The notes under the pieces were generated by a model. It made no database searches, was not told the origin of the DNA, and saw nothing but the letters and a program-made list of their open reading frames with translations. A stretch of DNA of 64,000 nt from Escherichia phage WPEC4, in sequence record PV682947.1. One strand, given 5' to 3'. This document shows positions 47,259 through 49,345 of the stretch, piece after piece. Each line of letters opens with the position of its first letter. The first letter of the stretch is position 1. The position numbers and the translations under genes were made by a program.

Positions 47259-48218
47259 TTAGATTCCAATGATAGTTGCTGCTCGTTTATCCTTGGATCT
47301 GGTGTTTGCTCTACTACGTGACAAACCGCCGCAAGATTCACAACGAATGATATCGAAAGAACTTACCGCAGTGTGGTATTGTTTACCAGTAACAACGTGA
47401 ACGTGATCACTGCCACAACGAGAACAACGGACCTTCTCATCTGGGTAATAAGCGGATAAGTTAGGATGCTGTGGAATCCACGGAAGGATTTTCATATACA
47501 AATCACGGAGTGAAACAACATCACCATCATTGTAAATCTGCATACGTTCAAAAGCATCACGATCACCTTCACAACATGCTTTCCATAAAGGGAACCCCTC
47601 GTTATCCAGTTTTTCACTTTCTGTTTCGAAATATGCTCCCATTTCTTTAAGGGAGTTGGAAGGAAGTGCAAATTGTTTCTTAGCTGCCTTCAATGTATCA
47701 ACAACTACATAATTAGAAGGAGGAGCCATATCGTGATATGCAAATCGTTGGTTAATGTATGCACGGTCAAACTTATATCCGTTGTGTGCCACAACTACAT
47801 CTGCCTCATTCAGAAGGTTCCAAAGATCTTGGCAAAGCTCCCAATCATCTGTATGATCAATATCAAAAAGAGGATAAGAAGACAAGTTCTTACCTTCCAC
47901 TTCACCAGTATACAGGTCAGCAGAAGAGTAAGATAACAAATAACCCCTACGAATTACTTGATCTGGAGAAATGAAGGCTTTGAATCGACGGAAAGTATAT
48001 GCAATCTCTGGTGCAGTTTCAACATCAATAATTTTAATAACTGGTTGTTTCTTTTTAACTGGTTCTTGTTTACTTGCTCCAAATCGTGCAAGGAAATCGT
48101 TCACTGTGCTTTTTCTTGTTGGACTACCTAAAACAATTGCTGCAATATTACGAGAAGACATACCCTCTGCACTCATACTAAGGATATCTGCTTTCTGCTC
48201 TTCTGTTAATCTGCTCAC
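47259..48218 (-). CDS. DEDD-type 3'-5' exonuclease-like protein with N-terminal HTH and C-terminal zinc ribbon
   Basis: IDVETAP (exo I-like), HNGYKFD (exo II-like), CSRCG...CESCGG. Confidence 0.5.
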   Translation of the reverse strand: MSRLTEEQKADILSMSAEGMSSRNIAAIVLGSPTRKSTVNDFLARFGASKQEPVKKKQPVIKIIDVETAPEIAYTFRRFKAFISPDQVIRRGYLLSYSSADLYTGEVEGKNLSSYPLFDIDHTDDWELCQDLWNLLNEADVVVAHNGYKFDRAYINQRFAYHDMAPPSNYVVVDTLKAAKKQFALPSNSLKEMGAYFETESEKLDNEGFPLWKACCEGDRDAFERMQIYNDGDVVSLRDLYMKILPWIPQHPNLSAYYPDEKVRCSRCGSDHVHVVTGKQYHTAVSSFDIIRCESCGGLSRSRANTRSKDKRAATIIGI

Positions 48219-49333
48219 TCTGCCTCCTGTTGTGAGATGTATGACTGAAGCATACTCTCAAATGTTGTATCGTCATTATCCCAGCGTTTCATGTATACCA
48301 ACTGGAAAATTGTTTCTATCCATTCATCTGTTGTCATATGGACTTCTTCTCCATCCCAAGAAGTAAAATTAACACCATCTGGGAACCACGAGTAGTAAGT
48401 ATCTTTAACTGTTTGGAAAAGTTCTGCTTGAGTTTTACAAGCTGAAAGAAGATTAAAACAAGTAATATCTCCGAACTTAATATCAAAATCTTGATAAGGT
48501 CGGATACTATCTGTTTTATCTCCCATTAGCATCTGATATGCTAACCAGTAACTGCCCCAACCTTTAACTTCTTTCTTTTTACCTTTATCTACGATCCATA
48601 TATCGCCAATAGACTCGTCAATAAGAATTATATCTGGATTTTTAAATACTCCATCCTCTTTGTAGAAATTAAAAAGGATACTAGGAGTATGTAAACTATC
48701 TTTATCTATAGACACTACGATATAAGAAAATTTACCCGTCCTTTTATAATCTTTATAACCTTGGAAACCATACTTCTCTAACTCATCATCAGCTTCTATT
48801 ACAGTAACAACATCACCATTGTGGAACTCCACAAGATAATCTTTGGTTTCTGAAAGCTGAAGTGGTTTGATATCTAATCGTTCAGATTTATATTCTACAG
48901 GCATTTTGAAGGCGTGTCTGAAAGTTTTTCCTACGCCAATAACTCCGCAATATTTTTCTAAACGTAGATGTTTTAGAATACCTAAGACTTTTGTTTTAGC
49001 TGCTTGGAAGGTGTGTCCGATATCTTCTGGCGGGTATTGCTTATCAATGATTTCGAACTCTTCCTTTGTGAAGGGACGTTTGTTTTTGGAGGCTCTTTCT
49101 GCATTTGTATCTCCTAGCCAACCTCCAATTTTAGTCTTGCTTTTACCCCAAAACTCTGTCTTATTTTTAAATTCCTTTTGAGCACCTGAAGGGATGTGCT
49201 TCGCAATGATTGTTCTTTTCTCTAATGCAGACGCTGCTTGGAAAGCGATCTGATCATAATCAATTGCAGCTATTGTTTCTTCGTTGACATATAAATGAAG
49301 ATCTTCAGGTTTAATTAAAATATAACCGCTAAT
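48215..49333 (-). CDS. rnh: T4 RNase H-like 5'-3' exonuclease / flap endonuclease
   Basis: EADD, SIDKD..LH, GDKTDS motifs; first ATG is 48904 but the frame is open with N-terminal homology (IAAIDYDQIAF) up to ~49330; no ATG/GTG/TTG start, 5' end approximate. Confidence 0.6.
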   Translation of the reverse strand: MSGYILIKPEDLHLYVNEETIAAIDYDQIAFQAASALEKRTIIAKHIPSGAQKEFKNKTEFWGKSKTKIGGWLGDTNAERASKNKRPFTKEEFEIIDKQYPPEDIGHTFQAAKTKVLGILKHLRLEKYCGVIGVGKTFRHAFKMPVEYKSERLDIKPLQLSETKDYLVEFHNGDVVTVIEADDELEKYGFQGYKDYKRTGKFSYIVVSIDKDSLHTPSILFNFYKEDGVFKNPDIILIDESIGDIWIVDKGKKKEVKGWGSYWLAYQMLMGDKTDSIRPYQDFDIKFGDITCFNLLSACKTQAELFQTVKDTYYSWFPDGVNFTSWDGEEVHMTTDEWIETIFQLVYMKRWDNDDTTFESMLQSYISQQEAE

Positions 49334-49345
49334 ATTTCCCCCTAA

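Follow-up and report, generated by a model that had tools for sequence, protein, structure and literature searches.

In Escherichia coli, the codons AUA, AUC, AUU, and CUG constitute a second tier of start codons, with activities of 1 to 2% (0.1 to 3%) of that of AUG (bioRxiv 10.1101/063800), and in another reporter system expression from AUU was 6- to 8-fold lower than that from AUG or GUG (PMC3592434). Confirmed AUU-initiated genes in E. coli are limited to infC and pcnB (bioRxiv 10.1101/063800). infC, which encodes initiation factor 3 (IF3), is the second gene behind a close upstream stop (a gap of 3 nucleotides [nt]), and it initiates weakly and in a discrimination-sensitive manner (10.1101/063800; PMC3592434). 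The AUU of infC serves autoregulation, IF3 repressing initiation at its own start codon. In pcnB, encoding poly(A) polymerase I, the weak AUU is reported to limit an enzyme that is toxic when overproduced (PMC2939334, PMC3561954; 10.1101/063800). For the ebpA pilus gene of the Gram-positive Enterococcus faecalis, a rare ATT is reported as the true, experimentally verified start, which attenuates expression and in place of which databases gave an ATG 120 bp downstream (PMC4447247). Here we describe a gene with a comparable arrangement in a stretch of 64,000 nt from Escherichia phage WPEC4 (PV682947.1), referred to below as the window: the minus-strand gene for a predicted 5'-3' exonuclease/flap endonuclease (FEN) has no canonical start codon and probably starts at an ATT, giving a coding sequence (CDS) at positions 48215 to 49333 (372 codons counted from the ATT, followed by the TGA stop at 48217-48215).

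The phage gene shares with infC the AUU codon and the position as a second gene behind a close upstream stop, here at a distance of 12 nt; in contrast to infC, nothing suggests feedback of the nuclease on its own initiation. With pcnB it would share a weak AUU limiting a potentially harmful enzyme, but pcnB is a host gene for another enzyme, and the toxicity of the phage nuclease is an assumption. As in ebpA, a downstream ATG has been taken for the start, in the phage 429 bp downstream; unlike that of ebpA, the start of the phage gene is a prediction from sequence.

No stop interrupts the nuclease frame between 49345 and the TGA at 48217-48215. A codon-by-codon scan from 49345 to the ATG at 48904-48902 (codon 148 of the frame) found zero in-frame ATG, GTG, or TTG codons and thereby bears out the first-pass annotation, which had reported that no canonical start precedes this ATG. 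Position 49345 is immediately preceded by the TAA (49348-49346) that terminates the upstream gene; this TAA happens to lie in the same frame, and the four codons between this TAA and the proposed initiation codon (TTA GGG GGA AAT) include no possible start. The first three in-frame near-cognate codons are ATT at 49333, 49321, and 49315; the one at 49331 to 49333 (minus strand) is the sole near-cognate between the in-frame TAA and the conserved peptide SGYILI. It is preceded by a Shine-Dalgarno-like GGGGG (49338 to 49342, minus strand), annotated as a ribosome-binding site (RBS) in phage ESCO13; the spacer, earlier put at 4 to 5 nt, is 4 nt (AAAT). No significant RNA structure, inhibitory or special, was found in the initiation region (z = -1.26). 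Of all open frames in the window with 100 codons or more, the nuclease frame has the longest leader lacking a canonical start (147 codons), the next longest (75 codons) being antisense to real genes. The start-less nuclease frame is not a chance open frame.

The possibility that a sequencing or assembly error removed a canonical start had been raised for positions 49321-49345, where a printed line looked one base short. The sequence is continuous there, and the 80 nt at 49296-49375 recur with 100% identity in 52 independent GenBank phage records; 64 of 64 Phapecoctavirus records match at least 80% of this stretch at an identity of at least 95%. In total 126 records match the 80-nt start region, all over at least 80% of its length, and each one that was read has the same start-less layout. 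The suspicion of a missing base is thus unfounded, and we regard such an error as virtually impossible.

The position of the start was located by comparing relatives; tblastn matches were found in 1212 phage records, and junctions were gathered from GenBank phages, IMG/VR, metagenomes, and Logan/ENA contigs (L numbers below denote related loci). A motif of the GGAGG/GGGGG type always lies upstream of the position homologous to ATT 49333, with a spacer of 3 to 5 nt in the clade of near-cognate users and of at most 6 nt in outgroups; it is present in every tabulated clade member and was read directly in four more. At this position the outgroups carry canonical starts, namely, TTG in rV5-like Vequintavirus (CAGGAGGGTCT-TTG) and L033 and ATG in Certrevirus (GAGGAGTGAGTA-ATG), L018/L034, and Pseudomonas phage PAK_P5. 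Every examined relative with at least 50% amino acid identity carries a near-cognate codon, which was seen in about 25 distinct loci: ATT in Phapecoctavirus, Justusliebigvirus (phi92, ECGD1, and SD2; AGGAGGTAAT-ATT), L031, L035, L045-L052, L059, L060, and L062; ATC in L009, L056, L012, L013, L023-L027, and L030; ATA in L014, L028, L029, and L061; and CTG in L015. The homologues thus start at the position of ATT 49333, where they have TTG or ATG, and the closer relatives swap only to ATC, ATA, or CTG, which supports the AUU initiation suggested in the first-pass annotation. In a neighbor-joining tree the near-cognate users form one clade, except that L033 (TTG) groups with L014/L015, and the tree implies at least five switches among weak codons.

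The start does not lie further upstream. In L013, L024, L025, and L027 an in-frame TAA stands directly before the ATC, and the N terminus therefore cannot be upstream in those loci. The G-run of phage vB_EcoM_01 is longer by one G, and phAPEC8 carries a substitution in the interval separating the stop from the Shine-Dalgarno sequence; the region from stop to ATT therefore tolerates changes that coding sequence would not.

We next consider the 143 codons before the internal ATG (Met144; 48902 to 48904, minus strand), which is the start in most GenBank records and yields a 229-amino-acid (aa) truncation. In codon alignments of 17 clade members, the ratio of nonsynonymous to synonymous substitution rates (dN/dS; Nei-Gojobori estimates) was 0.05 to 0.14 for codons 2-143 and no different for codons 145-372. 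Synonymous sites were near saturation, and differences clustered at third positions (e.g., 34/18/66 by codon position). The 143 codons upstream of the internal ATG are coding and under strong purifying selection. Consistent with this, all 372 residues were folded in an AlphaFold2 model built from an 84-sequence alignment (mean predicted local distance difference test score [pLDDT], 96.1), the N-terminal 10-residue blocks scoring 86 to 98. A real product of 229 aa, with the upstream codons a decaying remnant or untranslated, would agree with ATG 48904 being the first canonical start in frame and with the annotation in the phAPEC8 RefSeq record, WPEC2, and iGC_PHA_EC001. However, the constraint on the upstream codons extends across lineages with saturated synonymous sites, and the 143 residues are predicted to fold confidently together with the remainder. 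The ATG has no Shine-Dalgarno sequence before it (CACGCCTTCAAAATG); Met144 is not conserved, Leu being the consensus at this position in relatives, and it falls within the conserved motif TFRHxFxxPxEYKSER, so that a start there would split the TFRH..YKSER nuclease motif. In related genomes without an ATG there, gene callers pick other arbitrary internal codons. The N-terminally truncated product that the first-pass annotation had offered as an option is accordingly very improbable.

A programmed event was the other option raised there, and production of the nuclease by stop readthrough, hopping, or frameshifting from the upstream gene, which encodes a 69-aa small signal-peptide protein (49346 to 49555, minus strand), might be entertained on the grounds that the TAA at 49348-49346 shares the nuclease frame and precedes the conserved peptide by only 4 codons and that one gene caller yielded a 444-aa fusion (P0005). 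The frame relation to the upstream gene, however, varies among relatives: ECGD1 and phi92-type genomes have the upstream stop in another frame, the extra G in vB_EcoM_01 breaks the relation, and L013-type loci carry two successive in-frame stops. The gene preceding the nuclease gene in L060 encodes a DNA methylase, and the Shine-Dalgarno sequence and the ATT are still kept; moreover, a signal peptide on a replication nuclease would make no biological sense. We hold this route to be extremely improbable. The 444-aa fusion is an artifact in which the TAG between two genes was translated as Gln under an alternative genetic code; it comes from L038 (Logan contig SRR30397360_28145, 1501-2835), belongs to a cluster with 48 member sequences, and was provoked by the start-less frame. 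Three more specific routes were tried and rejected. A hop that takes off at the GAA preceding the TAA and lands on the GAA within GGGGGAAAT would leave the ribosome out of frame. For a frameshift from an out-of-frame ATG, the only candidates are the mini-open reading frame MTMNN (followed by a stop) in the upstream gene and an L031-type ATG abutting the Shine-Dalgarno sequence, neither of which is conserved. Transcriptional slippage on the G-run was discarded, relatives carrying GGAGG instead.

From these comparisons we consider it probable, at roughly 0.8, that translation starts at the AUU at 49333-49331 and gives a protein of 372 residues. In the mechanism that we propose, 16S rRNA would pair with the GGGGG 4 nt upstream of the AUU, as in ordinary bacterial initiation, and the initiator tRNA (anticodon CAU) would be accepted on the near-cognate AUU, so that the protein would begin with Met (M-S-G-Y-I-L-I...), with (M)SGYILIKPEDLHLYVNEETIAAIDYDQ... 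as the N-terminal peptide. Output would be low despite the strong Shine-Dalgarno sequence because AUU is a second-tier start codon, and part of the initiation may come from ribosomes that have just terminated at the upstream stop, 12 nt ahead of the AUU; such coupling is seen in E. coli infC. Overproduced T5 and T4 5'-nucleases are toxic, and, by analogy with pcnB, a weak codon behind a strong Shine-Dalgarno sequence likely serves to hold the level of the nuclease low.

Coupling to the upstream gene is plausible from the arrangement of the two genes, and a stronger version would have the AUU reached mainly by termination-reinitiation, nuclease output being set by translation of the upstream gene and not by free 30S binding. 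In the clade members examined, the upstream stop lies 0 to 20 nt before the start, often overlapping the Shine-Dalgarno sequence as TAGGAGG, and E. coli infC has the same layout, with a 3-nt gap and an AUU start. In reporters whose cistrons lay close together, an infC-like UAA-GGU-AUU junction among them, reinitiation and de novo initiation had roughly equal shares (PMC3592434). The strong Shine-Dalgarno sequence is nevertheless always retained, which suggests that de novo initiation matters, and it is kept together with the ATT in L060, in which the upstream gene differs. Predominant reinitiation is therefore possible but rather doubtful, and we favor an AUU used by de novo initiation with a possible contribution from coupling.

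Several points weigh against a selected weak start at ATT 49333. A pattern of ATT, ATC, or ATA but never ATG is also expected of a conserved internal Ile codon; the codon pattern argues for a selected weak start only when it is taken together with the upstream stops and the constant distance from the Shine-Dalgarno sequence. L009, L056, and L029 have another near-cognate in the codon just upstream, and the exact codon is ambiguous there; L060 and L061 have an ATG 9 codons downstream that could be used. The proposed purpose of the weak start, limiting the nuclease, rests on the analogy with pcnB and on the toxicity of overproduced T5 and T4 5'-nucleases, and searches of the literature gave no proteomic or ribosome-profiling data on this gene. 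Finally, the in-frame ATT codons at 49321 and 49315 are formally possible starts as well. Both lie within the first 7 codons, at 16 and 22 nt, respectively, from the GGGGG, distances that exceed normal Shine-Dalgarno spacing. Those homologues that have canonical starts use the position of 49333, and the 3- to 5-nt spacer is conserved for that position alone, so that initiation at a downstream near-cognate instead of 49333 is quite unlikely.

In L060 and L061, relatives with 55 to 57% identity, the downstream ATG has no Shine-Dalgarno sequence and is the codon chosen by gene callers. The peptide between the two candidate starts is conserved (FKTIS, FNTIS, or YKTIS), and this conservation suggests that the near-cognate is used in these two loci too.

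The protein itself is a divergent phage member of the FEN/5'-3' exonuclease superfamily (PIN-like domain plus helix-three-turn-helix [H3TH]) at the fold level, with predicted nuclease activity on 5' flaps or 5' ends. A Pfam search with the window protein gave no hit, PF02739 (5'-3' exonuclease N-terminal domain) included. PF02739 matched 16 of the 84 homologues (E values down to 1.7e-6); in six homologues scanned individually all matches were under the 34.3-bit cutoff, the curated Pfam threshold not being reached. These matches begin at profile position 28 or later, around protein residue 85. When a profile of the family was compared with the PDB, the 5'-3' exonuclease 9l56 was matched at an E value of 1e-3, with the tFR..YKxxR, EADD, and DKD motifs paired, and the related entry 9l55 weakly paired the GDxxD (H3TH) motif. 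Foldseek searches with the AlphaFold model had E. coli ExoIX and the T5 D15 FEN as top matches (E values of 8e-5 to 1e-3), and the modeled fold as a whole agrees with those of solved FEN-type nucleases. The label "T4 RNase H-like" given in the first-pass annotation is thus fair at the fold level. The phage nuclease is very divergent from T5 D15, T4 RNase H, E. coli ExoIX, Mycobacterium smegmatis FenA, and the Pol I 5'-nuclease domain (PF02739/PF01367); its identity to solved structures is 12 to 20%, and its length of 372 aa exceeds that of the solved FEN-type matches (239 to 317 aa). A scan of bacterial genomes for relatives found none.

The motifs typical of FEN-type enzymes, tFR...YKxxR, E-A-D-D, D-K-D, and GDxxDNI (H3TH), are all present, and Y148, K149, E180, D182, D183, D210, K211, D212, D272, and D275 are invariant in 84 sequences. 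The tFR...YKxxR motif (TFRHAFKMPVEYKSER, residues 137-152; 48878 to 48925, minus strand), in which F138, R139, Y148, and K149 are invariant or nearly so, pairs with tfRH..YKsnR of 9l56. Upstream of the internal ATG lies a conserved N-terminal acidic motif, IDYDQ (residues 24-28; 49250 to 49264, minus strand), with D25, Y26, D27, and Q28 at least 90% conserved. In the model IDYDQ ends the first long strand (predicted at residues 16-25) and is followed by a helix; given this position and its conservation, it presumably supplies the first active-site Asp.

Annotation of the gene differs widely among databases. Record KX552041.2 (ESCO13) has the CDS annotated from this very ATT, with an RBS feature, and the ESCO13 genome announcement (PMC5374246) does not mention the start codon; in phage PATM the label was transferred by homology. 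The ATT start is thus already right in one database record, and starts of this type are known from infC, pcnB, and ebpA. A published description of this start codon or of the clade-wide pattern was not found in the literature on phAPEC8, ESCO13, and phage ATT/AUU starts. Elsewhere, as a consequence of the missing canonical start, most database records list a truncated protein, the forms among the GenBank records inspected being 229 aa (ATG; phAPEC8 RefSeq, WPEC2, and iGC_PHA_EC001), 344 aa (internal GTG; phi92, ECGD1, and SD2), and 363 aa (TTG), and phiWec181 using an internal TTG. The phi92 record carries the note "No RBS identified; weak Prodigal statistics," and the gap left by truncation is filled with spurious small open reading frames.

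Most of the GenBank records inspected therefore omit the conserved N-terminal region of a conserved replication nuclease. Gene callers limited to ATG, GTG, and TTG will repeat this misannotation, and one metagenome pipeline switched genetic code to bridge the gap. A family in which one position wanders among AUU, AUC, AUA, and CUG, and in the sampled clade is never ATG, GTG, or TTG, would also offer a natural series for start-codon strength, which could serve the study of IF3 discrimination and of coupling in infected cells; the phages in question (phi92, phAPEC8, and relatives in the BASEL collection) are easy to grow and engineer.

A further-reaching idea, which we consider unlikely, is that the clade-wide use of second-tier starts (AUU, AUC, AUA, and CUG) behind a strong Shine-Dalgarno sequence is a regulatory device, not just a means of lowering output, in which the state of the host's initiation machinery in infection would act as a gate on nuclease synthesis. 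Candidate gates may be the availability of IF3, upstream-gene translation, or an initiator-like tRNA of the phage itself. The last of a cluster of 10 tRNA genes (60068-61993) is a tRNA(CAT) at 61915-61993 (plus strand) with initiator hallmarks: an A1 x C72 mismatch, G2:C71, C3:G70, and A11:T24, together with a T73 discriminator. It has just one of the three anticodon-stem G-C pairs on which IF3-dependent proofreading relies. Near-identical copies occur in Phapecoctavirus and Justusliebigvirus, the tRNA being annotated as tRNA-fMet in phage PaulScherrer, and more distant copies are found in FelixO1-like Erwinia phages and Caulobacter phages. A link between this tRNA and the weak start codon is pure speculation.

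The window derives from a Phapecoctavirus (phAPEC8-like coliphage, Stephanstirmvirinae); the 3.4 kb around the nuclease gene match 64 Phapecoctavirus records at 99 to 100% identity, and Escherichia phage WPEC2 at 100% identity. The gene lies on the minus strand inside a tightly packed replication/recombination block, in the order RdgC-like gene, 69-aa signal-peptide protein gene, nuclease gene, and DnaQ-like exonuclease gene. The 69-aa protein is a homologue of phi92 gp086, for which the phi92 record carries a sig_peptide feature. Downstream, the GTG start of the DnaQ-like exonuclease gene (48216 to 48218, minus strand), so annotated in phAPEC8, overlaps the TGA of the nuclease gene as GTGA, which shows the tight packing of the genes here and their probable translational linkage. 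Records disagree on the start of the DnaQ-like gene, which is the GTG in phAPEC8 and a later ATG in WPEC2 (306 codons including the stop).

In the interval that separates the RdgC-like gene from the 69-aa signal-peptide gene (49571-49623), we observed a sigma-70-like promoter match at 49623-49595 (minus strand; TTGACT, 17 nt, and TATTAT, with TG), directly followed by a terminator-like hairpin at 49594-49571 (minus strand; GCCTACCT...AGGTAGGC TTTTT). The transcript on which the nuclease gene is carried may be set by these two elements.

A search of the 64-kb window for other genes lacking a canonical start left one weak candidate only, the remaining candidates being antisense to real genes. 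This candidate is an open frame at 13490-13909, whose first canonical start is a TTG at 13670, after 60 codons. The 5' part of the frame is formed by a 77-nt direct repeat, present in three copies (97 to 100% identical) at 13274-13350, 13429-13505, and 13506-13582 (plus strand), the last two in tandem, in an apparently intergenic stretch. The frame could be a second case of a misplaced start, as the stretch just before TTG 13670 reads like protein.

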